Shown one piece after another: positions 25,598 through 60,526 of a stretch of 64,000 bases of DNA. The stretch's first letter is position 1. Each line of letters starts with the position of its first letter. Made by a program: the position numbers and the translations under genes. The notes beneath the pieces are model-generated. The model was not told where the DNA came from and made no database searches. It was given only the letters and a program-made list of their open reading frames with translations. The stretch spans positions 1 through 64,000 of the forward strand of contig CAVXXK010000001.1 in the NCBI GenBank assembly GCA_963765675.1, read 5' to 3'. The DNA is from an uncultured delta proteobacterium. Lineage in GTDB: Bacteria > Desulfobacterota > Binatia > Binatales > Binataceae.

Positions 25598-26731
25598 TTA
25601 GCCAAACATCTCTTTGAGCTTATCGACAAAGCCCTTGGACAGCGGATGATTGACCGCCTTGCCGTCGAGCTTGGCGAATTCTTCGAGCAGCTCGCGCTGG
25701 CGCGGGGTCAGGCTGTGCGGAGTCTCGACTACGACGCGGATCAACTGGTCGCCGCGTCCGTAGCCGTGCAGATCGACGATGCCCTTGCCCTTCAGCCGCA
25801 GCACCTTGCCCGACTGCGTGCCGGCGATGATCTTCGCCTTGACCTTGCCCTCGAGCGTCGGCACTTCGATCTCGCATCCGAGCGACGCCTGCGGAAAACT
25901 GATCGGCACTTCGATCACGATGTCGTTGTCCTGGCGCACGAACAGGTCGTGCTCTTTGACGTGGATCACGACGTAGAGATCGCCTGCCGGACCGCTGCCG
26001 TAGCCGGCCTCGCCCTCACCGCGCAGCTTCAGGCGCGAGCCGTTGTCGACTCCGGCGGGAATTTTGACCGAGAGCGATTCGCTCTTGCGGATACGTCCCT
26101 GTCCCTGGCACTTCGGACACGGGTCGGAGATGATCATCCCTTCGCCGCGGCATTGGCCGCAGGTGGTCGAGATCGAAAAGAAGCCCTGCTGCGTGCGGAC
26201 CTGTCCCGTACCGCGGCAATTCGGGCACGGGCTGGCGGCGGTGGCGCCTGCGCGCGAGCGCGATCCATTGCATGAGTCGCATTTGGTCAGGCGCTGGAAT
26301 TTTACGGTCTTCTCGGTACCACGCGCGGCCTCTTCGAATTCGACTTCGAGATCGTAGCGGAGATCGTCGCCGCGACGGGTGCGCGAGCGAGCGCGGCCGC
26401 GTCCTGTCCCGAAGAAATCGCCAAAGATGTCGGAGAAGACTTCCTCGAAGCCTTGAGTGAAATCGAACCCGCCGAACGGACCCTGCCCCGACGCACCCTG
26501 GAACGCCGCGTGGCCGAAGCGATCGTACTGCGCGCGGCGCTCGGGGTCGGAAAGCACCTGGTATGCTTCGTTCAGTTCTTTGAAACGCTCTTCTGCTTCC
26601 CTGTTGCCGGGATTGCGATCCGGATGAAACTGGATTGCGAGCCGCCGATAAGCCTTCTTCAGCTCCTCGTCAGAGGCGCCGCGGCTTAAGGAAAGGACCT
26701 CGTAATAATCCCGTTTGGTGGCAGAGGGCAT
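25598..26731 (-). CDS. dnaJ: Chaperone DnaJ
   Basis: J-domain HPD, G/F-rich region, four CxxCxGxG-type repeats. Confidence 0.97.
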   Translation of the reverse strand: MPSATKRDYYEVLSLSRGASDEELKKAYRRLAIQFHPDRNPGNREAEERFKELNEAYQVLSDPERRAQYDRFGHAAFQGASGQGPFGGFDFTQGFEEVFSDIFGDFFGTGRGRARSRTRRGDDLRYDLEVEFEEAARGTEKTVKFQRLTKCDSCNGSRSRAGATAASPCPNCRGTGQVRTQQGFFSISTTCGQCRGEGMIISDPCPKCQGQGRIRKSESLSVKIPAGVDNGSRLKLRGEGEAGYGSGPAGDLYVVIHVKEHDLFVRQDNDIVIEVPISFPQASLGCEIEVPTLEGKVKAKIIAGTQSGKVLRLKGKGIVDLHGYGRGDQLIRVVVETPHSLTPRQRELLEEFAKLDGKAVNHPLSKGFVDKLKEMFG

Positions 26732-26767
26732 TGCCGAATGAGTCTAAACCATCGCGGCTTCCAAAGC

Positions 26768-26810
26768 CATTGTCCCCGTGAGGTGTTGGCGCACGCTCAC
26801 GGGGACAATG
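26768..26810 (-). terminator. Stem-loop between dnaK and dnaJ
   Basis: CATTGTCCCCGTGAG..CTCACGGGGACAATG 15-bp stem. Confidence 0.6.
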
Positions 26811-26827
26811 CTTTGCTTCAATTCCAT

Positions 26828-28786
26828 TTACTTCACTTCTTTGAAATCGGCGTCGACGACATCTTCCTTTGGCGCCGCTCCGTCGCCGCCTGCGGCGCCG
26901 TCACCGGATGCGCCAGCGCCGCCGTCGTGATGCGGTCCGCCTTGCGCTCCTGCGTCCGCGCCCGGCTGAGCGCCCTGCGCACGAGTCTTGGCGTACATTG
27001 CCTCGGCCAGCTTGTGCGAGGCGGTCGAGAGCGTCTCGGCAGCCTTGTTCAGCTCGTCCGCATCCTTGGATTCGAGCTTGGTCTTAGCCTCCGCGAGCGC
27101 GTCCTCGACGGACTTGCGCGCCGCGTCGTCGAGCTGCGAGCCATGCTCCTTGAGCGTCTTCTCGGTGGTATAGACCAGGTTGTCGAGCTTGTTGCGCGCC
27201 TCGGCCTGCAAGCGCCGGCTATGATCGTCGGCCGCGTGCGACTCGGCCTCGCGCACCATCTTCTTGATCTCCTCCTCGTTGAGTCCCGAGGACGCGGTGA
27301 TCTTGATCGACTGCTCCTTGTTGGTGCCAAGGTCCTTCGCATGGACGTTCACGATTCCGTTCGCGTCGATATCGAAAGTCACTTCGACTTGCGGCATCCC
27401 GCGGGGAGCGGGCGGAATTCCAATCAGGTCGAACTGGCCGAGCAGCTTGTTGTCCGACGCCATCTCGCGCTCGCCCTGGAACACGCGAATCGTAACCGCG
27501 GTCTGATTGTCCTGCGCGGTCGAGAACGTCTGGCTCTTGCGCGTCGGGATAGTTGTGTTCTTCTCGATAAGCTTGGTGAACACGCCGCCCAGCGTTTCGA
27601 TTCCGAGCGACAGCGGAGTCACGTCGAGCAACAGCACGTCTTTGACTTCGCCCTTGAGCACTCCGCCCTGGATCGCCGCGCCAATCGCGACGACTTCGTC
27701 CGGGTTGACGCCCTTGTGTCCTTCCTTGCCGAAAATCTTCTTGACCCGCTCCTGGACTGACGGCATCCGCGTCATCCCGCCGACCAGCACGATCTCGTTG
27801 ACTTCGCTGGCCTTCAGGCCCGCGTCGCGCAGCGCGGTGATGCACGGCGCGTCCAGGCGATCGAGCAACTCGGCGCATAGCGCTTCGAGCTTCGCGCGGG
27901 TGAGCTTGATATTCAGATGCTTCGGCCCCGACTGGTCCGCCGTGACGAACGGCAGATTGATGTCGGTTTCCATCACGGTCGAAAGTTCGCACTTGGCTTT
28001 CTCGGCCGCTTCCTTAAGGCGCTGCAACGCCATCCGATCTTTACGCAGATCGATTCCCTGATCCTTTTTGAACTCGTCGGCCAGGTAGTCGATGATGCGT
28101 TGATCGAAATCCTCGCCGCCCAGGAAGGTGTCGCCGTTGGTCGCTTTCACCTCGAACACGCCTTCGCCCAGCTCGAGAATCGAAACGTCGAAGGTGCCAC
28201 CGCCAAGATCGAACACTGCGATCTTTTCGTCCTTCTTCTTGTCGAGTCCGTATGCGAGCGACGCCGCAGTCGGCTCGTTGATAATGCGCAGCACGTTCAG
28301 ACCCGCGATTCGTCCGGCGTCTTTGGTCGCCTGGCGCTGTCCGTCATTGAAGTACGCGGGCACGGTGATGACGGCCTCGGTGACCTTCTCGCCAAGATAG
28401 TCTTCGGCGGTCTGCTTCATCTTCTGAAGGATGAACGCCGAGATCTCGGGCGGACTGTATTTCTTGCCGCGGATCTCGACCCATGCGGCGCCGTCGTCGT
28501 TCTTGACCACCGAGTAGGGAAGAACCTTCTTGGCTTTCTCGACTTCGGGGTCGTCGTAACGCCGGCCCATCAGGCGCTTGATCGCGAAAACCGTGTTGGT
28601 CGGATTCGTGATCGCCTGCCGCCGAGCGATTTGCCCGACCAGCCGTTCGCCTGAATCCGTGAATGCCACGACCGAAGGAGTCGTGCGGCTGCCCTCTGAG
28701 TTGGCGATCACGACTGGATCGCCGCCCTCCATGATTGCAACGCAACTATTGGTGGTCCCAAGGTCGATACCGATTACTTTTGCCAT
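26828..28786 (-). CDS. dnaK: Chaperone DnaK
   Basis: [26 protein letters not shown]-terminal DADFKEV. Confidence 0.99.
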
Positions 28787-28840
28787 GATTTATACACGTC
28801 CCCGAAAAACTTGTTCGCTCAAATAAAACGTAACCACTGC

Positions 28841-29491
28841 CTAATTGTTTTCAACGTCTGATGCGTCAGTTTCGCCTTCGCTTTGCCCGCCAGGTCCCTT
28901 TGAGACCGAGACGCGCGCGGGCCTTATCACCCGATCGCCAATCTGGTAGCCGCGATGGAACTCCTGCACGATCTGATTCGGTGCGTGAACCTCGCTCACG
29001 ACATGATCGACCGCCTCGTGCCGACTCGGATCGAACGGCTGCCCGACCGATTCGAGCGAGGTCACGCCTTGCGCGCGCAGCAGGTCCATCATCGAGCGCA
29101 GAACCATCTCGACGCCGTCGATAATCGTCTTTGAGCCGGCGTCACCGGCGCGCGCTGCTTCCACTGCGCGTTCGAGATTGTCGATTATCGGCAGCAGATC
29201 GCGCAGGATTGCCTCGCGCTGGATCCGCACAGATTCCTCGCTCTGCTGACGAATCCGTTTGCGCGCATTTTCATTGTCTGCGAGTGCTCGCAGGTACTTG
29301 TCCTTGAGCTCGGCCAGCTCCTGCTCCTTGGCCTCGAGCGCAGCCTGAAGATCGGGCGCGCCGTCGCCCTGAGGAGCGGCGCCGTCGGCCGCATCTTCGT
29401 GCTGCGCGCGATGCTCGTGGTCATGTCCTTGATGATGCCCGGGATGCGCTCCCGCGTGGCTATCGCTGTCGTCTTTATGATGCTTGTTCAT
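28841..29491 (-). CDS. grpE: Nucleotide exchange factor GrpE (His-rich N-terminus)
   Basis: LRALADNENARKR, DNLERA, FDPSRHEAV, GYQIGDRVIRPARV. Confidence 0.95.
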   Translation of the reverse strand: MNKHHKDDSDSHAGAHPGHHQGHDHEHRAQHEDAADGAAPQGDGAPDLQAALEAKEQELAELKDKYLRALADNENARKRIRQQSEESVRIQREAILRDLLPIIDNLERAVEAARAGDAGSKTIIDGVEMVLRSMMDLLRAQGVTSLESVGQPFDPSRHEAVDHVVSEVHAPNQIVQEFHRGYQIGDRVIRPARVSVSKGPGGQSEGETDASDVENN

Positions 29492-29676
29492 TACGATGTT
29501 TGGCCCCCCAATACAGGGCTAACCACATAGAAGATAAGCACGATTTCCCCGCGCGCCAGTCGTCGCGAAGCTTAATTTGCCGCCGCGAATCTGTAGTATC
29601 TTGCGTGCGGCAACGGCTCAGGCCGAAAATACCTCCGCAGAAGCTCCGCCCCGGCGATCGATTTCGAGGATTCGCA

Positions 29677-30801
29677 ATGCGCACAGCCCCATCCATCCGT
29701 CCGTCACTTTGGTTGCTCTCCGGCGCAATGGTTGTGCTGACCTGCGCACTCTGCGCGCCCGCGCGTGCCGCCAACGCGAAACCCTTTGCGCTTCAGGAAA
29801 CCATCGCGGTGCCGGGCAAGCCGCTGACCGGCTTCGATATTTCGTGGGTCGATCCTAAAACCCATCAGCTCTATCTCTCCGATCGATCCAACAACTCGAT
29901 TGACATCTTCGATACGCGCACCCTCAAGTTCATCGCGCGAATCGGCGGGTTCGTAGGCAATGGGCCGGGCGGCTACGATCACGGCGGACCCAACGGCGTC
30001 GTCGTAATCGACTCGCCACATGAGGCGATCGCCGGTGACGGCGACAGTACGGTCAAGATGATAGACCTCGACGCCAAGCCGCCTAAAATCGCCGCCACGA
30101 TTCCCACGGGAGGCACGGAGCGCGCTGACGAGCTTTCTTATGACGCGGCCGACGGCCTCGCGATGGTTGCGAATCCGGGCGAGAAGCCGCCGTTCGTTTC
30201 GTTCATCTCAACCAAGTCAAACAAGGTCATTGGCAAGATCGACTTTCCCGACGCGACCGACGGCCTGGAGCAATCGGTCTGGGATCCGAGCCGCGACCTT
30301 TTCTATCAGGTGGTGCCCGAGCTCAAGCACGGCGATGGCGCGATCGCCGAGATCGATCCCAAGACCATGAAAGTCACTCGCAAATTTGTGGTCCGCGAAT
30401 GTCACGGCGCCGGCCTGACCCTCGGTCCCGACGGCAAGCTCCTCATCGGATGCACCCGAAAACAGTCCGTCGTGATGGACGCGATGACGGGCAAAGTCGT
30501 CGCTGAGACACCAAAAGTCTCCGGCTCCGACGAGGTCTGGTACAACTCCGGCGACGGCCGTTACTACCTGGCTGCGGTGCGGGATCCGGCGGGTCCGGTG
30601 CTCGGAATTATCGATGCGAAGACCAACACCTGGGTCGAAAATCTCGCCACCGCCTATCCCGCCCACTCAGTCTCCGCCGATCCCTCGAATAACCGGGTCT
30701 TCGTCCCGATGGGCCCGAATCAAACGAGCTTCGACACCGATCCGGCAAAGCATCTCGACTGCGCAGGCGGATGTATCGGGGTGTACTCGGAGAAGCCTTA
30801 G
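29677..30801 (+). CDS. Secreted YncE-like beta-propeller protein
   Basis: Signal peptide; FDISWVDP, GPNGV, RADELSYD, GLEQSVWDP, GSDEVWYN, AHSVSADP repeats. Confidence 0.8.
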   Translation: MRTAPSIRPSLWLLSGAMVVLTCALCAPARAANAKPFALQETIAVPGKPLTGFDISWVDPKTHQLYLSDRSNNSIDIFDTRTLKFIARIGGFVGNGPGGYDHGGPNGVVVIDSPHEAIAGDGDSTVKMIDLDAKPPKIAATIPTGGTERADELSYDAADGLAMVANPGEKPPFVSFISTKSNKVIGKIDFPDATDGLEQSVWDPSRDLFYQVVPELKHGDGAIAEIDPKTMKVTRKFVVRECHGAGLTLGPDGKLLIGCTRKQSVVMDAMTGKVVAETPKVSGSDEVWYNSGDGRYYLAAVRDPAGPVLGIIDAKTNTWVENLATAYPAHSVSADPSNNRVFVPMGPNQTSFDTDPAKHLDCAGGCIGVYSEKP

Positions 30802-30871
30802 CGCGCAGCACGGTGCGAACTGATCTGCTCTCTTCCAATGAGATTGGGAGAGGGAATAGGCGGCCGTGCCG

Positions 30872-31912
30872 CTAATGCTCGAGCAGCTTCGAGAGGGCTT
30901 TGGCGGTGTACTCTACCAGCGGGATCACACGGTCGTAGTCCATTCGCACTGGACCCACAATAGCGAGGCTGCCAACCGGCGTTGCTCCAGTGGCATATGA
31001 AGCCGCGATAACGCTGAGGCCCGCCAGGCGCGCGTCGTCGTTTTCCGAACCGATCGATACCGTAAGCCCGCGCCGGGCGAGACTGCGCTCTAGCAGATCG
31101 AGCAGCGCGGTCTTGTCGTCGAGCGCGCGTAGCAGCTCGCGCATCCGCTCGGGATCGGAAAACTCCGGCTGCTCGATAGCCTGCAGGCTGCCATCGACGT
31201 AAAGCTCCGTGCGGCTCGCATGTTCGGCGACCGCGCCGCCCAGAGCCAGCGCGTCGCGCACGAAACGGTCGTACACCGCGCGCTCCTCGTGCAGGCGCTC
31301 TTCGATCCAGCGCCGCGCTTCATCCAGCGTGCGTCCGGCCAGCGACTCGTTCAGATACCGCGCCATCCGATCGAGCTCGTCCTGCGAATGGTCGCGATCA
31401 GTCTCGACGATATGGTTCTGCACCTGTCCCGCCGCCGCGACAAACATCGCGAGCACCTGCCGCTCGCGCAGGCGCACAAAGTTAACCCGCTCGAGCATCA
31501 TCGATTCCAGCCGCGGGCCCATCACCAGCGCGGCCTGCCCGGTAAGGAGCGCCAGCAGCTTGGGCGTGTCGCGCATGATATCGTCCAAATCACGCGTGCG
31601 GGTCGAATAATGCAGCTCAATCTGCGCGCGATCCTCGAATCCGATCCGCGAGACCAGGCTGTCGACGTAATAGCGATAACCCTTGTCGGTCGGAACCCGT
31701 CCCGCCGAGGTATGCGGCTGTCGCAGGTAGCCCCCGTCCTCAAGCTCCGCCATCATGTTGCGCACCATCGCGGAGCGCACCCCGAGAGGATGCCGTGCGA
31801 CGATTTGCTGCGAGCCCACAGGCTCCGCGGTCGCGATAAATTCCTGCACCGTCGCGAGCAGCAGCGCCTGTCGCCGTGCGGAGAGCGCTTTGGTTTCGAT
31901 TTCCTGGGTCAT
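30872..31912 (-). CDS. hrcA: Heat-inducible transcription repressor HrcA
   Basis: EPVGS, SAMVRNMMAELE..QPHTSAGRVPTDKGYRYYVD, VGPVRMDY. Confidence 0.95.
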   Translation of the reverse strand: MTQEIETKALSARRQALLLATVQEFIATAEPVGSQQIVARHPLGVRSAMVRNMMAELEDGGYLRQPHTSAGRVPTDKGYRYYVDSLVSRIGFEDRAQIELHYSTRTRDLDDIMRDTPKLLALLTGQAALVMGPRLESMMLERVNFVRLRERQVLAMFVAAAGQVQNHIVETDRDHSQDELDRMARYLNESLAGRTLDEARRWIEERLHEERAVYDRFVRDALALGGAVAEHASRTELYVDGSLQAIEQPEFSDPERMRELLRALDDKTALLDLLERSLARRGLTVSIGSENDDARLAGLSVIAASYATGATPVGSLAIVGPVRMDYDRVIPLVEYTAKALSKLLEH

Positions 31913-32071
31913 CTGATTGCGGCTTGAGTTTTCACAAGATGTAAACGCCGGCAAGCCGCAGTCTAACTGCTTCAATTCTGACCCCTCATAGTGGTGGTTA
32001 TCAAGCGCTGTGGGGTGCAATCGCACCGGAAGGTCGGCTAATCTTCCACAGGAGGGGATGCGTCAAGGACG

Positions 32072-38461: not shown

Positions 38462-40033
38462 GCCAACGGCAACGTGACCACCTACACTTACGATCCGATG
38501 GATCGCCGCGCATCAAGGACCGATGCGCTGGGCGCCGTGGAGAGCTACGCCTACGACGGAATGAGTAACCTTACCAGCCACACGGATCGCAATGGGAACG
38601 TAACCAGCTACAGCTACGACGGGCTGAACCGCAGGACGTTTGCGGGTTTTGGATACAACGGCAGCGGGTATCAGAGCACGATTAACTATACGTGGGACGG
38701 GGGCGACCGCCTGACGCAGGTGGTGGATTCAATTGCGGGAACCATCTCGCGGACTTACGACGGGCTCGACGACCTGACCGACGAGCAGACGCCGACGGGC
38801 GAGGTCAGCTACGCGTATGACAACGCGAGGAGGCGGACGTCGATGACGGTGGTGGGGCAGCCTGCGGCGGCCTCCTACGCGTGGGACAACGCCAACCGAT
38901 TGACCGGAATTACCCAGGGGAGCGCGTCGGTTGCGTTCAATTATGACAGCGCGAGCCGAAGGACTACGCTGACGCTGCCCAACGGGATCGAGGTGGGGTA
39001 TAGTTACGACAACAACTCGCGGATAAGCGGGATGACCTGGACGTTGGCCGGCAACCAGATCGGAGACCTCGAGTACGATTACGATGCGGATGGGCGCGTG
39101 GTCGAGAAGACGGGGAGCCTCGCGCAGACCAACCTGCCGCAGCCGGTGACCGGAAATACCTTCAATGCCGATAACGAGATGACGGCGTTCAACGGCACTC
39201 CGATGACTTACGACGCAAACGGCAACCTGCTCAACGATGGGAGCAACGCCTACGCTTGGGATGCGCGCAATCATCTGAGCGCGATCAGCGGTGCGAATGC
39301 AGCCAGTTTCGTCTATGACCCGTTGGGGCGGCGGATCAGCAAGACTATCGGGAGTACGACGACGAGCTTCCTGTACGATGGGCTCAACCCAGTACAGGAA
39401 CTTCAATCGGGCGCGCCGAGCGCGAACATGCTGACGGGGCTCGGGATCGACGAATACTTCCAGCGCAGCGATGCCTCGGGTGCGAGCAGCTACCTGACAG
39501 ATGCGCTGGGCAGCACGCTGGCGCTCGCAAACCCGGCGGGCGGCTTAGCGACCAGCTATACGTATGATCCGTTTGGGACCACTGCGGTGTCGGGTTCGGG
39601 TACAAATCCCTTCCAGTTCACCGGCCGAGAAAATGACCTCAACGGTCTTTATTATTTGCGTGCCCGTTACTACAACCCAGCGTTGCAGCGATTCCTGAGT
39701 CAGGATCCCATAGGAGTCCGAGGCGGGATGAATCTTTATGGCTATGTCGGAAATAACCCTGTAAACTCTTTCGATTTGTTGGGATTGGGCGGTACACCCT
39801 CGACGACGCCCACGCCGACCAGTTGTCCAACGCCGATTCCCGTGGATCCAACCCAGGCACCAACAACATGCCAAAAGCACCTAGCCTGTGAAATAGGATG
39901 GGAGGGCACATGTGACCAGTGCAACGAATTCGAGAATCCCCAGCCGGTATTTGTTTGTCACGTTGGCTGTGTCATTACAGGGGCGGTAGTATGCGAGATT
40001 GAGTTTCCCTGCAGCCTCCGGGGTAATGACTGA
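38462..40033 (+). CDS. N-terminally truncated Rhs/YD-repeat protein with Cys-rich C-terminal tip
   Basis: YD repeats, core FTGREND..YYLRARYYNP..FLSQDPIG..NLYGYVGNNPVNSFDLLG; starts mid-repeat right at the direct repeat edge. Confidence 0.85.
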   Translation, partial: ANGNVTTYTYDPMDRRASRTDALGAVESYAYDGMSNLTSHTDRNGNVTSYSYDGLNRRTFAGFGYNGSGYQSTINYTWDGGDRLTQVVDSIAGTISRTYDGLDDLTDEQTPTGEVSYAYDNARRRTSMTVVGQPAAASYAWDNANRLTGITQGSASVAFNYDSASRRTTLTLPNGIEVGYSYDNNSRISGMTWTLAGNQIGDLEYDYDADGRVVEKTGSLAQTNLPQPVTGNTFNADNEMTAFNGTPMTYDANGNLLNDGSNAYAWDARNHLSAISGANAASFVYDPLGRRISKTIGSTTTSFLYDGLNPVQELQSGAPSANMLTGLGIDEYFQRSDASGASSYLTDALGSTLALANPAGGLATSYTYDPFGTTAVSGSGTNPFQFTGRENDLNGLYYLRARYYNPALQRFLSQDPIGVRGGMNLYGYVGNNPVNSFDLLGLGGTPSTTPTPTSCPTPIPVDPTQAPTTCQKHLACEIGWEGTCDQCNEFENPQPVFVCHVGCVITGAVVCEIEFPCSLRGND

Positions 40034-40218
40034 TTGAGTATAGGCTCCTACCAGCAGACGCTATCCATGGCTATCACACGAAAGCAGTATTACTAAGAGG
40101 TGGCTTGCCGTTTCCCATAGATGGGCACGAGTGATTAGCAACTATCAAGTGCTAAGTTGTTTATGAGAATAGATCTCGTAAGTATTAGTGGTTGTAAACG
40201 TAGCTTATAGGCATTGAA

Positions 40219-40635
40219 ATGCGGGGTGAGAAGAAATATGTCGGCAAGCATGTAGCACTTTTCATTGGTGTAGTGTACGCGATTATCTGGTATCGAATTC
40301 CATATATAGCGGCTGGAGAAGGCTGGCTTAGTGTCTACTTGCCAGCCATTTCTCTGCTATTTGCGGTAATGCTCGTGCTCACGCTCTATTCCGATGACAC
40401 GCCATGGTTGAATCTGACATACTTTTTCCCGGGCGTGATCATCGGCGTATCTATCGATACTCTAGTGTTCCACAGCAAGGCCTCGAGAATTGCGTGGCTA
40501 TTCGAATCCCTAAGCCTTTGCGTGTTTCTAGCACCGATCGCTGTTTTGGCGACAGCGCTTGGTCGCTGGATTAGCAGGAGACGGAAAAGGCCTGGCAATG
40601 AAATTCCTGTTCATGATGAAAGCGAGACTCCATGA
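40219..40635 (+). CDS. Low-GC 4-TM membrane protein, putative immunity protein
   Basis: Hydrophobic helices; directly downstream of Rhs tip; AT-rich. Confidence 0.6.
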   Translation: MRGEKKYVGKHVALFIGVVYAIIWYRIPYIAAGEGWLSVYLPAISLLFAVMLVLTLYSDDTPWLNLTYFFPGVIIGVSIDTLVFHSKASRIAWLFESLSLCVFLAPIAVLATALGRWISRRRKRPGNEIPVHDESETP

Positions 40636-40715
40636 GATCGGCGGGGGAACGGAGTGATCATCCTCCAGTGCGTTGACAAAGCAAGCGAGAAGGTTCGACC
40701 GGTGCGCGTACGCGA

Positions 40716-40860
40716 CTGGCGATCACACTATACGTTAGAAGCCTAGGGCGGACGGTGAACGGTTACGATCTCGTCGAGATGTTCTCTGAGGTTGGTAAAG
40801 TCCTGAGTTCGCAGATCATCTATGACCGCAAGACGAATCGTTCGCGGGGATTTGGCTTTC
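40716..40860 (+). pseudogene. RRM RNA-binding protein remnant
   Basis: TLYVRSLG (RNP2-like)..DLVEMFSEVGKVLSSQIIYDRKTNRSRGFGF (RNP1), then similarity is lost. Confidence 0.6.
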
Positions 40861-41090
40861 TCTTCGCGATCCGTTTTCTCGCGGCGTTTTCTCTGGTTGC
40901 TCTCGTGAGACCCAGCGATATCATTCGAAGTTGGAGATACCGTCCAGGCGATCCGCTCTGAGAAGGAACTCGTAGCAGTCGTGGTGCGCTCGAGAAGCAC
41001 CCTGGCTAGCGAAACATGTTCCGGCGAATAATGCTAGGGTTCGACGGTCTTCCAGAACGGGTTAGAAAATATTCCTTACAAACTCACAGT

Positions 41091-42156
41091 TGCATTCGGC
41101 TACAACGGGAGCGGCTATCAGAGCACGATCGGCTACACCTGGGACGGGGGTGACCGTCTGACGCAGGTGGTCGATTCAATTGCGGGAACGATCGCGCGGA
41201 CCTATGACGGGCTCGACGACCTGACCGACGAGCAGACGCCGCCGGGCGAGGTCAGCTACGGGTATGACAACGCGAGGCGGCGGACGTCGATGACTGTTGT
41301 GGGGCAACCTGCGGCGGCATCATACGCGTGGGACAACGCGAACCGGCTGACCGGAATTACCCAAGGGAGCGCTTCGGTTGCGTTCAATTATGACAGCGCG
41401 AGCCGAAGGACAACGCTGACGCTGCCCAACGGAATTGTGGTGGCGTATAGTTATGATAAAGATTCGCGGGTAAGCGCGATGACCTGGACGTTGGCTGGCA
41501 ACCAGATTGGAGACCTCGAGTACGATTACGATCCGGACGGACGCGTGATCGAGAAGACGGGGAGCATGGCGGCGACCAATCTGCCGCAGCCGGTGACTGG
41601 AAACGCCTTCAATGCGGACAACGAGATGACGGCGTTCAACGGTACCGCGTTGAGCTACGATCCGAACGGCAACCTGCTCAACGATGGGAGCAACACCTAC
41701 GCCTGGGACACGCGCAATCATCTGAGCGCGATCACGGGCGCAAATACCGCGAGCTTCGTCTATGACCCGTTCGGGCGGCGGATGAGCAAGACGATTGGAG
41801 GAGCGGCGACGAGTTTCCTCTACGACGGCCTAAATCCCGTGCAAGAGCTTCAAGCTGGAACGCCGAGTGCAAACATGTTTACGGGACTGGGGATCGACGA
41901 ATACTTTCAGCGTACCGACGCCTCGGGTGCGAGCAGTTATCTCACAGATGCGCTCGGCAGCACACTCGCATTGGCAAACTCGGCAGGCAGCCTCGCGACC
42001 AGCTACAACAAGGCCTTGGTTAGCTGTCTTGAAGGTTTGCGTGACGATCCGCACAACTGGCCTTTCCCGCCGGATCCAAGTGACGATCCGGGAGACATTG
42101 GCGCACATGAGTATAGAGAAGGCGCAATCTATATATTCCAGCATGGGGTGTGGTGA
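41091..42156 (+). pseudogene. Second Rhs fragment (orphan), core end deleted and fused to a different tip
   Basis: Near-duplicate of 38641-39560; stops matching after LATSY and lacks the FTGRE..DPxG core end. Confidence 0.8.
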
Positions 42157-54669: not shown

Positions 54670-54779
54670 CGCGGTATGGTTCCTCCCTGCACGATTCACT
54701 CCTAACCCGCGCGCGACGCGTCCGGCAACTGCCGCGGGTGCCTCGCGCGGCGCGGCGGCGGTGTGCTAACAAGCCGCGT

Positions 54780-56141
54780 ATGGCGTCGATGAAATTTCCT
54801 GAGGGATTTTTGTGGGGCACCGCGAGCGCCTCTTACCAGATCGAAGGAGCGTGGGACCACGACGGCAAGGGCGAATCGATCTGGGACCGCTTTTCACACA
54901 CACCCGGCCGGATCAAAAACTCGTGGACCGGCGACGTCGCGTGCGATTTCTACCATCGCTTCAAGGACGATATCGCGCTTGAGGCCGAACTCGGGCTGAA
55001 TGCCTCGCGCATCTCGCTTTCGTGGCCGCGCATCATGCCCGAAGGCAAGGGGCGCATCAACCAGAAGGGAATCGACTTCTACAAACGCGTCGCCGACGAA
55101 TTGCTCGCACGCAAGATCCAGCCTTGGGTCACGCTCTATCATTGGGATCTGCCGCAGGCGCTCGAGGAGCTCGGCGGATGGACCAATCGCGATCTCGCGG
55201 GCTACTTCGGCGACTATGCCGCCGCGTGCGCCGACGCGCTCGGTGATCGGGTCAAGCATTGGATGGTCTTCAACGAGCCGTGGATTTTTACCATCTTCGG
55301 CTACCTACTCGGTAATCATGCGCCCGGCCGGCGTGACGGCGCGCAGGCGATCCGGGCGACGCACGTCGTCAACCTGGCGCAGGGACTCGGGGTGCGCGCG
55401 CTGCGCGAGTCGCGTCACAAGCCGGCGGCGGTCGGAACCGCGTTCAGCATGTCGTCGGTCGAGCCCAACACCAATTCGCCCGAAGATAAAAGCGCCGCCG
55501 AACGATGGCATAGATTCAATAACCTGTGGTTCCTCGACACGGTGATGAAGGGTGAATATCCGAGGATCTACGACACCGGCGACGTCGCCGACCGGGTCGA
55601 TATGCGGCCCGGTGATATGGAGACGATCAAGGCGCCGCTCGATTTTATCGGAATCAATCTCTACTTCCGGAGCATTGTCGCGCACGACAACAACGCCGCG
55701 ACACTCAACGTGCGGCAGATTCATCCGGAAACCAAGGAGCTGACCGATTTCGGATGGGAGATTTCGCCGCGCGCGCTTTCGGACATGACGAAGACGATCG
55801 CCGCCGACTATCCCGGCCTGCCGATCTATATCACCGAAAACGGATGCTCTTACGGTGACGCGCCGGGCGCCGACGGACGGGTGCATGACACGCGGCGGAT
55901 CGATTTCACCCGGCGCTATCTGGCGGAGCTATGGCGCGCGATCGAGAAAGGCGCCGACGTGCGCGGCTACTTCCATTGGACGTTGACGGACAATTTCGAA
56001 TGGGCGGAAGGCTTCGCGCAGCGCTTCGGAATCGTCTACTGCGACTTCGATACTCTTGCCCGGACCGTCAAGGACAGCGGGCGATGGTACGGGCAGATCG
56101 CGCGTAACAACGCGCTCGATCGCGACCCGGGCGCGCAATGA
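54780..56141 (+). CDS. GH1 beta-glucosidase
   Basis: FLWGTASASYQIEG, TLYHWDLPQ, NEP, ITENG, DNFEWAEG. Confidence 0.95.
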   Translation: MASMKFPEGFLWGTASASYQIEGAWDHDGKGESIWDRFSHTPGRIKNSWTGDVACDFYHRFKDDIALEAELGLNASRISLSWPRIMPEGKGRINQKGIDFYKRVADELLARKIQPWVTLYHWDLPQALEELGGWTNRDLAGYFGDYAAACADALGDRVKHWMVFNEPWIFTIFGYLLGNHAPGRRDGAQAIRATHVVNLAQGLGVRALRESRHKPAAVGTAFSMSSVEPNTNSPEDKSAAERWHRFNNLWFLDTVMKGEYPRIYDTGDVADRVDMRPGDMETIKAPLDFIGINLYFRSIVAHDNNAATLNVRQIHPETKELTDFGWEISPRALSDMTKTIAADYPGLPIYITENGCSYGDAPGADGRVHDTRRIDFTRRYLAELWRAIEKGADVRGYFHWTLTDNFEWAEGFAQRFGIVYCDFDTLARTVKDSGRWYGQIARNNALDRDPGAQ

Positions 56142-56740
56142 CGCCCGCAATGAACGGCGCGGAAATCCTGGTCTGGATCCACGTGCTCGCCTGGGCCGCC
56201 TACTTCGGCGCTCAGTTCGCGGTCATCTATATGCTGATGCCCGCGGCCGAGGGCGCGCCCGACGAGGCGCACCGCCGCGCGAGCTTGATAACCGGCTTCA
56301 AATTTTACAATCCGTTTTCGATCGGGATGCTGGGGATCGTCGTGATCACGGGCGCGATGCGGCTGACCGATCTCAAGGCGGAGATGAAGTTCGATTACTT
56401 TGCGCGAATCGGAGAGCCGCTCGCGATAAAGCTAGGGCTCGCGTTTCTGCTGATCTTCATCCAGACCTACATCACGTTCGGCTTATCATTCAGAATCGGC
56501 CGGCAGGAAGAGGTTGCCGCACACGGCGACGGACCTGCGTTCACGGTCGAGCAGTTGAACTCGATGCTGAAGCGGATTCGCGCGATGATCTGGGTAACGA
56601 TCGTACTGACTGCCGCGGTGGTACTCGTGTCGCTGACTATTGTGCGGCGCGCGGCGGATGAGGCGACTACTGAGTCGCGCATCTCCGCGCGCGCCGCATT
56701 GGATTTGGACTTTACCCGGCCGCAGGTTCCAGCCGGTTAG
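56138..56740 (+). CDS. 4-TM membrane protein (CopD/DUF4149-like)
   Basis: WIHVLA..VITG..KLGL helices; overlaps GH1 stop. Confidence 0.7.
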   Translation: MTPAMNGAEILVWIHVLAWAAYFGAQFAVIYMLMPAAEGAPDEAHRRASLITGFKFYNPFSIGMLGIVVITGAMRLTDLKAEMKFDYFARIGEPLAIKLGLAFLLIFIQTYITFGLSFRIGRQEEVAAHGDGPAFTVEQLNSMLKRIRAMIWVTIVLTAAVVLVSLTIVRRAADEATTESRISARAALDLDFTRPQVPAG

Positions 56741-56777
56741 GCGGCGCGCGCGTCGCAGGCGACCCTTGCCAGATCGC

Positions 56778-56957
56778 TCAGGCGAGCGCGAGGAACGAGC
56801 AGACGAGATAGGCGAGCGTGATGAGCCCAAACGCCACGCCGGGAAGCTCGGTAAGGAAGCTATTCTGCGCGTAACGGATGTAGTCAGTCGGCGCCGCCGT
56901 CTCAGTCGCGGGCGTCAGTCCTGCAAACCGGGTACGGTTGGTGGTCGTCGCATTCAT
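56778..56957 (-). CDS. 59-aa tail-anchored microprotein, paralog 3
   Basis: MNATTTNRTRFAGLTPATETAAPTDYIRYAQNSFLTELPGVAFGLITLAYLVCSFLALA; GGGAG RBS. Confidence 0.85.
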   Translation of the reverse strand: MNATTTNRTRFAGLTPATETAAPTDYIRYAQNSFLTELPGVAFGLITLAYLVCSFLALA

Positions 56958-56990
56958 GGTCGTAATTCTCCCGTGAGTTATCTTTTCGTG

Positions 56991-57170
56991 TTATGCCAAT
57001 GCCAGCAGGGACATCGCGATGTACGCCAGCGTGATAATTCCGAACGCCAGGCCCGGAAGCTCCGTCAGGAAGCTGTTCTGGGCGTAACGGATGTAGTCGA
57101 TCGGCGCCGCCGTCTCAGTCGCGTGAGTCAATCCTGCAATCTCGGTACGGTTGGTGGTCGTCGCATTCAT
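56991..57170 (-). CDS. 59-aa tail-anchored microprotein, paralog 2
   Basis: MNATTTNRTEIAGLTHATETAAPIDYIRYAQNSFLTELPGLAFGIITLAYIAMSLLALA; AAGGGAG RBS. Confidence 0.85.
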   Translation of the reverse strand: MNATTTNRTEIAGLTHATETAAPIDYIRYAQNSFLTELPGLAFGIITLAYIAMSLLALA

Positions 57171-57201
57171 GGTCGTCTTCTCCCTTCGATTGTTTCGGTT
57201 G

Positions 57202-57381
57202 TTATGCCAAGGCCAGCAGGGAAGTCACGATGTACGCCAGCGTGAGCAGCCCAAACACGAGTCCCGGCACTTCGTCGAGCCAGCTGTACTGCGCCAGCCG
57301 AACGGCATCGGTCGACGCCGCGGCTTCTGCCACTTCCTCATACCCAGCCAGCCTTGCCTCATTGGTCGTCGTCGCGTTCAT
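57202..57381 (-). CDS. 59-aa tail-anchored microprotein, paralog 1
   Basis: MNATTTNEARLAGYEEVAEAAASTDAVRLAQYSWLDEVPGLVFGLLTLAYIVTSLLALA; GGAGG RBS. Confidence 0.85.
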   Translation of the reverse strand: MNATTTNEARLAGYEEVAEAAASTDAVRLAQYSWLDEVPGLVFGLLTLAYIVTSLLALA

Positions 57382-57416
57382 TTTAAGTTCCTCCGAAACT
57401 TGACTTCGGGAGGTAA

Positions 57417-57432
57417 AGCAGGACCTGTGCCA
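57417..57432 (-). promoter_or_regulatory. Sigma54-type promoter for the microprotein triplet
   Basis: TGGCACAGGTCCTGCT (GG-N10-GC); upstream IHF-like TAACTATTTGGCT (57508-57496) and TTTGCGATACGCAAA palindrome near 57540. Confidence 0.65.
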
Positions 57433-57693
57433 TTGGAAAAACTCTCGATTTCAGAAGGATTTTGCTTTCGCAGCCTGTGCATAATCTCAGTCAAAAGCCA
57501 AATAGTTAAGGATTTGTAAGGATTTTTCTGGAATCGCGTTTTGCGATACGCAAATTTCTTGTTTTCGACATTCGCGTGAATTTTCGGTTTTTGCGAAACA
57601 CTGCAAGCAATCCAATGCAGTAAACTGATTGCATTAGACCCTCCTTCACGGAGTCTTTTAACCGTCATCACAATCTGCGACAGTGCCTTCATC

Positions 57694-58455
57694 ATGGACG
57701 ACACGCCACCTGCTCCTTCGCCTCGCACGACCGGCGAGCTAATTGCTCCGACCGCAATCGCATCCGACGCGCCCCAGAGCGACCACCGGACCGCATTGAC
57801 CCGCGAGTCGATTGTGCGCTTCGGCGAGCAAATCATTTTCGTCACGGCGGTCGTCGGCGCGGTGGCGCTCGGGCTCGGTATCACCGACTACTTTCGCGAC
57901 CACCGGTACATCTCGGCCTATCTGATCGCGTACATCGGATTTCGTTTTGCGGAACTGATGGTCGGCGAGGATCCGCGGCATCCGGCCGAGGCTGCCCAGG
58001 CGCACGCGCAGCGCATCCAGACCCAGATCGCGGTGCTGATATTGTTTGCGGCCGCTCCGTTCGAGCGGACCTATCTATACGGCGGCGACCCGGAGAAATG
58101 GGTTGGCGCACTTGGACTGTTGCTCGAGCTTGGCGGCCTGTGGCTCGCGCTGGGAGCGCGTATCCAGTTGCATTTTTTTTCGTCCGACAAAAGCGGACGC
58201 GAACGGATGATCCTCGTAAAGACCGGATTTTTCCGCTACGTGCGCCATCCGGTTTACGCCGGCGTGCTGCTGGTGATGCTCGCGTGGCCGCTCGTGTTTG
58301 CGGCGCCGATCGTCGCGATCGCGACGCTGGCCGTGGGACTCACTATCGCGCGGCGTCAAATTCGCGCCGACGAAGCGATTCTGGCCGCGCGCTTTGGCAA
58401 AGAGTTCGAGGAATACTGTCACACGACGGACGCGCTCATCCCGAGCATCTGGTGA
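57694..58455 (+). CDS. Isoprenylcysteine carboxyl methyltransferase (ICMT/Ste14)-like membrane protein
   Basis: LVKTGFFRYVRHPVYAG..DEAILAARFGKEFEEY..LIPSIW. Confidence 0.85.
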   Translation: MDDTPPAPSPRTTGELIAPTAIASDAPQSDHRTALTRESIVRFGEQIIFVTAVVGAVALGLGITDYFRDHRYISAYLIAYIGFRFAELMVGEDPRHPAEAAQAHAQRIQTQIAVLILFAAAPFERTYLYGGDPEKWVGALGLLLELGGLWLALGARIQLHFFSSDKSGRERMILVKTGFFRYVRHPVYAGVLLVMLAWPLVFAAPIVAIATLAVGLTIARRQIRADEAILAARFGKEFEEYCHTTDALIPSIW

Positions 58456-58485
58456 GCTTGGCAAAAACCAATTCGCGATACGTGA

Positions 58486-59058
58486 TTATGCGGTGCGGGC
58501 GCGGCGCTGGCAGCGGACTTGATTGCAAAACTTCTCGTCGGCGCGCGCGGCGATGAATTCGCTGCCACATCGCGCACACTTCACGATCGATTCTCCCGCC
58601 GCGAGCTGCGGCGGGGGCGCGGATTGCGCCACCGCGGCGGTCATGCTCTCGGTCGATTCGCCGTGCGCGCCGAGAGTTGCCAGAGCGTCGGCGCGTTCGT
58701 TGAGATCGTCGCCGGCGTGGCCGCGCACCCATTCGAATTCGACCTTGCGCTGCGCAGCTTCGGCGTCGAGCTGGCTCCACAGCTCCAGGTTCGCTTTGCG
58801 TTTCCATGCGCGCGTCATCGTGTTGACGACGTACTGGCTGTCGCTGCGCAGGATCACGCGCGCGCCAGGCTGGATCGCGCGCAAGGCCTGAATCGCCGCG
58901 GTCAGCTCCATCTGGTTGTTGGTGGTATGGCCGCCGTGGCCGTTGATCTCGCGGCGCGATCCGTCGGGCGCAATAATCACGACGCCCCATCCGCCGCGCC
59001 CGGGATTTCCATGGCACGCGCCGTCGGCGTACGCGAGATAGGCATCGCGAGAGGGCAT
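58486..59058 (-). CDS. rnhA: Ribonuclease HI with C-terminal Cys4 extension
   Basis: DGACHGNPGRGGWG, TTNNQMEL, SDSQYV, WVRGHAG..NERAD; tail CARC..FCNQVRC. Confidence 0.92.
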   Translation of the reverse strand: MPSRDAYLAYADGACHGNPGRGGWGVVIIAPDGSRREINGHGGHTTNNQMELTAAIQALRAIQPGARVILRSDSQYVVNTMTRAWKRKANLELWSQLDAEAAQRKVEFEWVRGHAGDDLNERADALATLGAHGESTESMTAAVAQSAPPPQLAAGESIVKCARCGSEFIAARADEKFCNQVRCQRRARTA

Positions 59059-59067
59059 CGTGAGATT

Positions 59068-60526
59068 CTACGCTGCGCCCCGCGTACGAGTTAAGGCGTC
59101 GAACCAATCGAGATAGCGGCGTGCGGATTGCGCCCAGGAAAAATCCTGCGCGAAGCAGTTCGTCACGAGCTTGCGCCACGCCGGCGGCTTCGCGAATGCG
59201 GCGGTCATCCGCGTGATCGCGGCGACCAACTCGTCGGCGGTCATATTTCTCGAACACAAAACCGGTTCCGCGTCCGGTCGCGGGATCAAATTCGGTGACG
59301 GTGTCGCGCAAGCCTCCGGTCGCGCGGACGATCGGCGCGGTGCCGTACTTGAGCGCGTACATCTGGGTCAGCCCGCACGGCTCGAACCGCGACGGCATCA
59401 GGAACGCGTCGCAGCCAGCCTGGATGCGATGCGCCATCGGGTTGTCGAATTCCAGAATCACGCGGAACTGGTCCGGGAAGCGTTTGCGCGCGGCGCTGAA
59501 AAATTCCTCGAGCGCCTTGTCGCCACTCGCCAGCATCACGAGCTGCACCCCGAGCGCCATCACCTCGTCGAGCGCGTCGCGCAACAGGTCGCAGCCCTTT
59601 TGCGTGGTAAGCCGCGTGACCATCCCGATAAGCGCGCGATCGTCCCATCCCGGCAGTTCGAGCGAGTCGCGCAGGTCGCGCGCGCATACGCGCTTGCCGT
59701 CGGGCATCGCCGGCGTATATTGCGCGGCGATCAGATCGTCGTGCGCGGGGTTCCATTCGCGATAGTCCGCACCGTTCAAGATTCCCACAAAGCGCTCGCC
59801 CTTGTTCCGCAGCACGCCTTCGAGGCCAAAACCGAGATCAGGATCGGCGGTGACTTCGCGCGCGTAGCTCGGGCTGACGGTCGAGACACCATCGGCGAGG
59901 ATGATTGCGCCCTTCATCAGATTCATGCGGCCGAAGAATTCGAGCCCGTCGATTCCGAAGTACGCGGGATCGATTCCGAGCAGCGGAAATTTCGCGGCGT
60001 CGTAGATTCCCTGGAAGGCAAGATTGTGAATCGTAAAGGCGGTCGTGGCGCGCGCAAAACGTTCGCGTATCGCCGCGTCGGCGCGCGCAACGATCGGCGC
60101 GACCGCGGCATGCCAGTCATGCGCATGCAAAACGTCGGGCCTGATAATTTCGGCGGCCGCCATCGCAGCGGCTTTTCCGAAGAAGGCGAAGCGGCGCAGA
60201 TTGTCGGGAAAGTCGCCTTCCTTGTCGCCGTATACTCCGTCGCGCGCGAAGAACTCCGGATGGTCGATCATAAAGATCGGCACGCCGTGGGAATCCTCGG
60301 CGCGCAGCACGCGGAACCGATGCGCCTCAGCGCCGAGATGCGCCGTCATCGCGGGGCCGACCGGCTCCGCCTTGAGCTTCGAGGTGATTGACTTGTAACC
60401 GGGAACGATAACGGCAGCCTCGGCGCCCGAATCTTTCAATGCGGCCGGCAGCGCACCGATGACATCGGCGAGTCCGCCGACTTTCGCCCACGGAGAAATT
60501 TCTGCTGCGACGATCGCGATCTTCAC
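59068..60526 (-). pseudogene. glgA: Glycogen synthase with a +1 frameshift near 59242 (possible sequencing error)
   Basis: KVGGLADV, HDWH, TIHNLAFQG, PSRFEPCGLTQM; removing one base joins FEKY to TADEL..DFSWAQSARRY in the other frame. Confidence 0.88.

Follow-up and report, generated by a model that had tools for sequence, protein, structure and literature searches.

The window analysed here, a 64-kb stretch of contig CAVXXK010000001.1 from an uncultured member of the Binataceae (all window coordinates are those of this stretch), carries on its minus strand three tandem genes of 180 nt for related 59-residue peptides that end in a hydrophobic helix. The three open reading frames (ORFs) are genuine protein-coding genes under purifying selection, and we strongly infer that a conserved sigma-54 promoter with an enhancer-like region drives them as a single transcription unit. 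That they make up a sigma-54-controlled operon of membrane microproteins is very probable. As to what the products do, the reading that we favour, with moderate confidence, is that of a signal-induced pair of single-pass microproteins that would associate among themselves or with a larger membrane protein, thereby modifying the membrane or the partner. The peptides appear to be an uncharacterised family within a known kind, the small single-pass membrane proteins.

Binataceae are common, uncultured bacteria of soil and peat. A genome scan with one genome per species yielded 80 loci (numbered with the prefix L), all from records of metagenome-assembled genomes (MAGs) titled Binataceae, Binatus, "delta proteobacterium" or, in a few cases, other labels with the same gene order. 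A family hidden Markov model (HMM) located peptide genes in the window and in all but one of the 80 loci, giving 80 sources in total. All loci come from one family of uncultured bacteria, and this kinship inflates the promoter and box counts given below.

Three short genes under purifying selection

A preliminary description of this DNA had reported three minus-strand ORFs of 180 nt recurring about every 212 bp, each with its own ribosome-binding site, and this layout was recovered here. Copy 1 (57202-57381) encodes 59 residues plus stop and is of the "QY" type, in which the segment AQYSWLDEVPG is followed by 19 hydrophobic residues up to the C-terminus. Copy 2 (56991-57170) encodes 59 residues of the "QNS" type (AQNSFLTELPG), and copy 3 (56778-56957), of the same length and type, is apparently a lineage-specific duplicate of copy 2. 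The starts lie 211 and 213 nt apart, and a purine-rich Shine-Dalgarno sequence stands 6-9 nt 5′ of each ATG (GGAGG at 57390-57394 for copy 1, GGGAGAA for copies 2 and 3). Ungapped alignment of the three products left 32 of 59 columns invariant, and it bore out the features earlier said to be common to all of them, namely the MNATTTN start, the motif A-Q-x-S-x-L-x-E-x-P-G and the closing LALA. Copies 2 and 3 are 83% identical, differing at 10 of 59 residues as counted by eye on the alignment.

Substitution patterns show that these frames are selected as proteins, as the preliminary description had supposed. Copy 1 scores 112 bits against the family profile, and its orthologues in L001-L005 are 97-98% identical to it. 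The pooled ratio of nonsynonymous to synonymous differences per site (pN/pS) among orthologues is 0.23 for copy 1 and 0.26 for copy 2 (range over close orthologues, 0.14-0.26), and the corresponding ratio of substitution rates (dN/dS) between copies 2 and 3 is 0.17. When all six frames were compared over 722 ungapped family pairs at 80-97% nucleotide identity, pN/pS was lowest in the peptide frame, at 0.30 with zero stops; the other five frames gave 0.42-2.70 and hundreds to thousands of stops. It could be argued that the ORFs are untranslated, being either a structured RNA or chance open frames, as GC-rich genomes abound in spurious ORFs and long antisense ORFs do overlap the region (56640-57245 and 57151-57519, both on the plus strand). 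These antisense ORFs are most simply read as by-products of GC-rich DNA, because the substitutions fit the peptide frame only. The ATG and Shine-Dalgarno sequence are conserved and peptide length is kept at 55-60 residues across the family; Rfam gave no match at E<=1 over 56000-58500; and the fold of a 5′ untranslated region (UTR) hairpin that would cover the Shine-Dalgarno sequence was no better than that of shuffled sequences (z = -0.79) and was not kept across loci. An untranslated origin is consequently extremely improbable.

A scan for an intrinsic terminator after copy 3 on the minus strand detected none, its sole match being the upstream palindrome on the plus strand, and the convergent neighbour ends 37 nt from copy 3. 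The N-terminal M-N-A-T-T-(T)-N (57361-57381, minus strand, in the window) is near-invariant in Binataceae members while its codons vary, which indicates conservation at the protein level; it holds an N-x-T triplet, and distant family members are without this N-terminus.

The sigma-54 promoter and its upstream region

The element assigned to sigma-54 is a -24/-12 sequence of the form TGGCAC-N5-CTGC (TGGCACAGGTCCTGC; 57418-57432, minus strand), the sole TGGCAC-N5-YTGC in the 64-kb window. Since 24 of 100 shuffled windows also held one such match, a single occurrence is not rare by chance, and the promoter call therefore rests on conservation. Relative to the first ATG, the strict pattern lies between -43 and -61, for the most part at -52 to -56 (about -54), in 61 of 80 sources, and a relaxed pattern precedes the first copy in 73 of 80. 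A stricter search of both strands of the 80 loci for TGGYAY-N5-TTGCW returned 59 matches, of which 58 immediately precede the first peptide gene, in agreement with the sigma-54-type promoter proposed in the preliminary description. No constraint is seen on the five spacer bases, in contrast to the flanks, as expected of a -24/-12 element. The seven sources missed by the relaxed pattern are L016 (15 nt of upstream DNA only), L043 (site present, start misestimated), L079 (partial match), and L057 and L076-L078, the last three being a divergent single-copy subfamily; the element is absent from these four. From the usual geometry of sigma-54 promoters, the transcription start is predicted near 57405-57407, with a 5′ UTR of about 25 nt.

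The -24 element is immediately preceded by the box AAATCGAGAGTTTTT (57437-57451, minus strand, an exact match). Allowing up to one mismatch, we found AAATCGAGAG in 46 of the 73 upstream regions, where the rest of the loci would lead one to expect 0.023 occurrences per 300 nt. The preliminary description had called this place an IHF-like site. A conserved box is indeed present, but its likeness to IHF is weak, as it agrees at only 7 of 9 specified positions with the IHF consensus (WATCAA-N4-TTR).

Further upstream, a presumed activator (enhancer) region extends over 57534-57633 on the minus strand, 102-201 bp from the -24 TGG, where an activator would bind. Sites for sigma-54 activators usually lie about 100-200 bp upstream. 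The region includes a TCGCA-N3-CGCGA sequence that overlaps TTGCGTATCGCAA (57541-57553), the two together covering 57534-57553, then TTCGCAAA-N13-CGCGAA at 57571-57597 and an array of the form TGCA-N10-TGCA-N10-TGCA at 57602-57633 (all minus strand), so that the upstream palindromes mentioned earlier were found again. The conserved boxes of this enhancer-like region include TCGCA-N3-TGCGA and TTCGCGAA. Among the 73 upstream regions, palindromes of the form TCGCA-N3-[TC]GCGA are present in 50, TTCGC[GA]AA in 61 and the TGCA-N10-TGCA-N10-TGC array in 45; judged from the rest of the same loci, 0.001-0.028 occurrences would be expected per 300 nt, and the observed frequencies are 10 to several hundred times higher. 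In an alignment of 17 diverse loci the boxes are conserved and the DNA between them is not, which argues that the boxes are under selection even though kinship inflates the counts. A control region as well conserved as this one would name the mode of control, sigma-54 together with an activator, and the promoter and its upstream boxes offer a direct route to the regulator and hence to the inducing signal.

Predicted structure and family of the peptides

Each product is predicted to be a helix-kink-helix with an invariant L-x-E-x-P-G. AlphaFold2, run on copy 1 with an alignment of 123 sequences, gave a mean predicted local distance difference test score (pLDDT) of 86.3, with helices at residues 3-31 and 33-58 and values of 94-99 over the last 30 residues. 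The 19-residue Kyte-Doolittle mean has its maximum, 2.31, exactly at the 19 C-terminal residues, and it stays at about 0.8 or below for stretches that begin within the first 30 or so; the hydrophobic C-terminal helix of about 20 residues seen in the preliminary description is thus supported by hydropathy and model alike. We infer that these last 19 residues cross the cytoplasmic membrane, with the C-terminus of the protein at the end of the span. Counts made by regular expression over 155 family peptides point the same way. In 145 of them P-G is followed by exactly 19 or 20 residues up to the C-terminus, and the segment after P-G has no charged residue or histidine in 114 and one in 31; in both counts the other 10 peptides reflect a regular-expression match placed too early. 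The last residue is small, being alanine in 101 of 123 sequences.

Within residues 26-59 conservation follows a period of 95 degrees per residue, which outlines a stripe along the helix made of R28, Q31, L35, E37, P39, G40, F43, G44, T47, Y50, S54, L55 and L58, with I51 beside Y50 on the same face and the small residues spaced as G-x3-G-x2-T-x6-S. This stripe, which is rich in small residues, is a candidate face for helix-helix packing. When a QY-type and a QNS-type peptide were submitted together to complex prediction, the score was 0.04 against a mark of 0.32, which carries no weight either way on the question of binding. The N-terminus is polar (M-N-A-T-T-T-N..) and has no hydrophobic stretch, as judged without a dedicated signal-peptide predictor. 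The most likely topology is N-in, C-out, so that the polar, mostly acidic N-terminal 35 or so residues would be cytoplasmic. We lean to N-in because R28 is near-invariant (119 of 123 sequences) and lysine or arginine is scarce in the last four residues (6 of 155 peptides); the 15 residues before the motif hold 1.02 lysines or arginines on average.

A conserved motif directly before a C-terminal membrane helix raises the question of whether the peptides are precursors, with E-x-P-G and the helix acting as a sorting or cleavage signal in the manner of PEP-CTERM and exosortase, or with a leader and core as in two-peptide bacteriocins or other modified peptides. Work describing PEP-CTERM proteins (PMC1569441) reports several features that recur here, including a short motif of glutamate and proline before the C-terminal helix, small genes, large intergenic regions and a sigma-54 site with an upstream activator motif. 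The identity itself fails on several points. The motif is L-x-E-x-P-G and not P-E-P; no model of the TIGR02595 type was matched, with no NCBIfam match at E<=1; the scarcity of lysine and arginine in the last four residues leaves no basic cluster after the helix; there is no N-terminal signal peptide; and the upstream motif differs, the "motif 1" of PEP-CTERM genes, with its terminal TTTACA some 63 nt ahead of the promoter (PMC1569441), not being what is conserved here. Pairs of small peptides with G-x3-G do resemble two-peptide bacteriocins. Class IIb bacteriocins are marked by a double-glycine leader, a dedicated peptidase-ABC exporter and an adjacent immunity gene. None of these was found, the neighbours being Lon, glycogen synthase, RNase H, an ICMT-like protein, a CopD-like protein and GH1. 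The conserved neighbourhood likewise contains no exosortase and no modification or processing gene, and conservation spans the whole length of the peptides rather than a mere core. A precursor role, one of three that the preliminary description had offered beside a structural polymer and a complex subunit, is accordingly judged highly improbable.

Type IV and Flp pilins were also considered. These are often under sigma-54 control and have a short leader ending in glycine, an N-terminal hydrophobic helix and a glutamate at +5. In the peptides the hydrophobic helix is C-terminal and the 19 residues after P-G hold no glutamate, and the assignment was rejected.

As the preliminary description had stated, the peptides belong to no recognised family. 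They matched no family in Pfam, NCBIfam (E<=1) or PADLOC (0 matches), the sole Pfam line being Colicin_V, whose 16 bits fall short of the cut-off of 29; PDB sequences searched with the profile yielded nothing beyond chance matches (E>=2), and Foldseek of the AlphaFold2 monomer against the PDB gave 0 matches, which is expected for a single bent helix. Nothing on the peptide family turned up in literature searches that covered Binatota and Binataceae, small and tail-anchored membrane proteins and sigma-54. Sequence relatives are nonetheless numerous. Searching 5.8 billion sequences with a profile of the three copies retrieved 134 protein clusters (E<=0.01), almost all with lengths of 56-60 residues; the named clusters are all "hypothetical protein" and the named organisms all Candidatus Binataceae or Binatus. 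An exhaustive HMMER scan of 50%-identity representatives gave 98 proteins at E<=0.001, and distant members keep only the core, approximately R-x-A-Q-x3-L-x-E-x-P-G-x2-F-[GA]-x2-T-x2-[YW] and then a hydrophobic run. Copy 1 is present letter for letter in the ESM Atlas, where its neighbours at 0.92-0.94 are again unnamed "hypothetical protein" clusters. The nearest named clusters, DUF6480, DUF7550 and YmiA (score 0.80-0.85), are leads only. Longer fused relatives were represented by one match of 134 residues among 8000 candidates scored, which is weak evidence against fusion to known domains. These searches show that the genes are in databases already and the family is undescribed, and they indicate that it is restricted to the Candidatus Binataceae lineage. 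The three ORFs had been described as unannotated and absent from the ORF track; they are not new to the databases, however, since relatives stand as "hypothetical protein" in public Binataceae MAGs.

Two paralogue types recur across the sources, QY (..A-Q-Y-x-[WM]-L-[ND]-E-[VIL]-P-G) and QNS (..A-Q-N-S-[FL]-L-[TS]-E-L-P-G). Sixty-one of the 80 sources have two tandem copies, eight have three, two have four and nine have one; among the single-copy sources, some have the gene at a contig end and one owes its count to a read-through fusion. QY precedes QNS in the window's clade, and QNS comes first in a large Binatus clade; in a third clade (L056-L068) both copies are QY-like and derive from a later duplication. 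The tree is a quick version, with 58 columns and most forks unresolved; in it copy 3 groups with copy 2. Third copies are confined to the window, L001-L006 and L049, with QNS duplicates in the window and L001-L006, so that the third gene of the window appears to be a duplicate of the QNS type that arose in its clade. The earlier label "dosage-amplified" accordingly holds for this third copy but not for the family at large, where 61 of 80 sources hold a pair, commonly of two distinct types that are each conserved in their own right. The pattern looks like a retained pair with occasional extra copies, not simple amplification.

Several loci depart from the common form. At L043:5791-6177 two peptide genes are read through as one 128-residue ORF, the first stop being lost and the spacer in frame, which is either a natural fusion or an assembly error. 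The fourth copies in L048:6448-6630 and L054:6233-6415 have lost E-x-P-G and carry charged residues in the helix; they score 25-29 bits with the HMM against 80-90 for the others and are probably decaying or have taken on a new function. The divergent single-copy subfamily (L076:5986-6165, L077:5720-5899 and L078:5995-6174) keeps the core L-S-E-L-P-G and the helix, and its peptides end in basic residues (..N-R or ..I-R). Its gene follows an aldo/keto reductase gene and precedes an AsmA-like gene, and in place of a sigma-54 element a sigma-70-like pair, TTGAAC-N17-TTTAAC, can be seen by eye upstream.

Proposed function and the divergent methyltransferase

The favoured reading, a signal-induced microprotein pair, may be laid out as a sequence of steps. 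An enhancer-binding activator encoded elsewhere would answer some signal and switch the operon on, and induction would then yield stoichiometric amounts of two kinds of single-pass microprotein. Two types in stoichiometric amounts are proposed because adjacent genes for two or more different paralogue types are retained in almost all genomes, and every one of these genes has a strong ribosome-binding site. Using their conserved face, the microproteins might assemble into hetero-oligomers or dock on a larger membrane protein, and packing could change a property of the membrane or the activity of the partner, as regulatory transmembrane peptides do. The window's third copy would be an extra dose of one type. 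If so, a tightly regulated and probably abundant membrane component of this kind likely marks a specific physiological state. Small membrane proteins are under-annotated and mostly without assigned function, and this family offers a clean case, with purifying selection, an invariant motif, a fixed helix length and a pair structure.

A number of observations weigh against the microprotein-pair reading. Some of the conservation seen in the promoter and boxes is owed to common ancestry. No protein with a Sigma54_activat domain was found among the scanned window ORFs of at least 200 residues (33, plus the operon neighbours). In 138 of 155 peptides the N-terminal part carries a net negative charge, which allows an N-out topology. 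The same-type pairs of L056-L068 indicate that a fixed A/B heteromer cannot be the rule everywhere, and dosage alone may explain the copies. The conserved neighbourhood (Lon, glycogen synthase, RNase H and GH1 beta-glucosidase), finally, names no partner.

Known systems provide partial parallels. Bacterial small membrane proteins act by binding membrane proteins or by changing the membrane. The Binataceae peptides resemble them in having fewer than about 60 residues, essentially one transmembrane helix, no catalytic domain and an expected induction. A review (PMC12648545) and a study (PMC7549839) deal with stress-induced small single-pass membrane proteins of E. coli. No sequence relation to such proteins was found, however, and the Binataceae peptides differ in forming a conserved two-type pair, in their sigma-54 promoter, in a predicted 35-residue conserved cytoplasmic part and in being confined, as far as the named members show, to Binataceae. 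Regulins such as phospholamban and sarcolipin are tail-anchored transmembrane regulators of P-type ATPases. Their architecture is similar: in about 50 residues a cytoplasmic helix leads through a kink into a transmembrane helix that closes the protein, leaving no tail past the membrane, and one conserved face serves oligomerisation or target binding; regulins are eukaryotic, however, there is no homology, and no P-type ATPase lies in the conserved neighbourhood of the peptides. The light-harvesting alpha/beta pairs are encoded by adjacent genes for two related single-helix peptides of about 50-60 residues that assemble together. Unlike these, the Binataceae peptides have no conserved pigment-binding histidine in the helix, no photosynthesis genes nearby and no match in sequence or fold. 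Within the family, the unusual traits are the two-type pairing, the fixed length of the helix at the C-terminus and the well-preserved sigma-54 control region.

Another role has also to be weighed, in which the peptides would be membrane-active effectors that form pores or depolarise the membrane for growth arrest or stress signalling, as type I toxins or small depolarising membrane proteins do. A single hydrophobic helix with a small-residue face could line an oligomer, sigma-54 control is expected to be tightly off by default, and small membrane proteins of E. coli that depolarise the membrane are reported (10.1101/2025.05.06.652344, PMC12719787). On the other hand, two to four copies with strong ribosome-binding sites are stably and vertically inherited at one chromosomal place, no antisense RNA or antitoxin feature was seen (the Rfam search again giving 0 matches), and besides T47 and S54 there are no conserved polar residues that might line a pore. 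Such effectors are a quite unlikely explanation.

The remaining alternative arises from the gene that diverges from the operon. A PEMT/ICMT-superfamily membrane methyltransferase of 253 residues (57694-58455, plus strand; assigned by Pfam) shares with the peptides a 312-bp regulatory region. It scores 32.9 bits with Pfam PEMT (cut-off 25) and 31.6 bits with ICMT (cut-off 24), and its orthologues in Binataceae are annotated as ICMT family. The peptides might be substrates of this divergent ICMT-like enzyme, their C-terminal carboxylate being methyl-esterified so that its charge is neutralised and the helix end can enter or cross the bilayer. The methyltransferase adjoins the peptide genes in 70 of 81 sources as their immediate divergent neighbour, and it stays beside them, together with the CopD-like gene and GH1, in five divergent loci whose outer genes are different (L064, L065, L069, L073 and L075). 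The fixed 19-20 residues from P-G to the C-terminus and the prevalence of terminal alanine suit such a modification, and the family to which Pfam assigns the enzyme (ICMT/PEMT) methylates C-terminal carboxylates at the membrane surface.

However, the classical ICMT (Ste14) substrate class, defined by a CaaX box with a prenylated cysteine, does not apply, as the C-terminus reads L-A-L-A and no cysteine is conserved, and the enzyme reaches only 55 bits with the NCBIfam isoprenylcysteine methyltransferase equivalog, whose cut-off is 160. Secondary peptide loci of the same genomes are without the methyltransferase, the CopD-like gene and GH1 nearby, the methyltransferase being missing at L057, L067, L070, L072, L074 and L076-L078. 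Adjacency within one bacterial family may be inherited order, and the genes are divergent, not co-transcribed. If the peptides are N-in, moreover, their C-terminus lies on the far side of the membrane from the cytoplasm-facing active site. Methylation of the peptides is on this evidence unlikely. A fuller version, a bacterial and prenylation-free counterpart of eukaryotic C-terminal carboxyl methylation in which the enzyme would cap the helix at the bilayer edge and so control insertion, stability or assembly of the sigma-54-induced heteromer, is decidedly doubtful; literature searches combining ICMT with bacterial, tail-anchored and C-terminal methyl ester terms found nothing. If true, the link would reveal a new protein modification in bacteria.

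In most loci the wider order is Lon, glycogen synthase, RNase H, the divergent ICMT-like methyltransferase, the peptides, and then the CopD-like gene and GH1, both convergent; most of these genes have housekeeping roles, and common descent would account for the shared order. On the convergent side (54738-56740, plus strand) the GH1 beta-glucosidase gene overlaps by 4 nt the gene for a 200-residue multi-pass membrane protein whose sole match is a weak CopD-like one (NCBIfam E = 2.4e-4), and the two genes appear to belong together. On the other side, the glycogen (starch) synthase ORF (58436-60526, minus strand) encodes 696 residues, with Pfam domains ending at about residue 429 and relatives of about 485 residues. 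Its tail is arginine-rich nonsense overlapping the RNase H gene (58486-59058, minus strand), and a separate 73-residue ORF (59068-59289, minus strand) is, by eye, a plausible missing C-terminus; the gene looks frameshifted near 59290, by true mutation or by sequencing error.

Three further regions of the window were noted. A heat-shock cluster at 25601-32026 (minus strand) consists of hrcA, an opposite-strand ORF of 433 residues without a Pfam match, grpE, dnaK and dnaJ, and looks ordinary. At 38474-42153 (plus strand) two ORFs with RHS repeats (519 and 329 residues) may be pieces of one large RHS/toxin-delivery protein. The segment 2-4228 (minus strand) encodes a TrwC-type relaxase of 730 residues, which runs off the start of the window, and a TrwB/TraG-type coupling protein of 677 residues, and represents the edge of a conjugative or integrative element.

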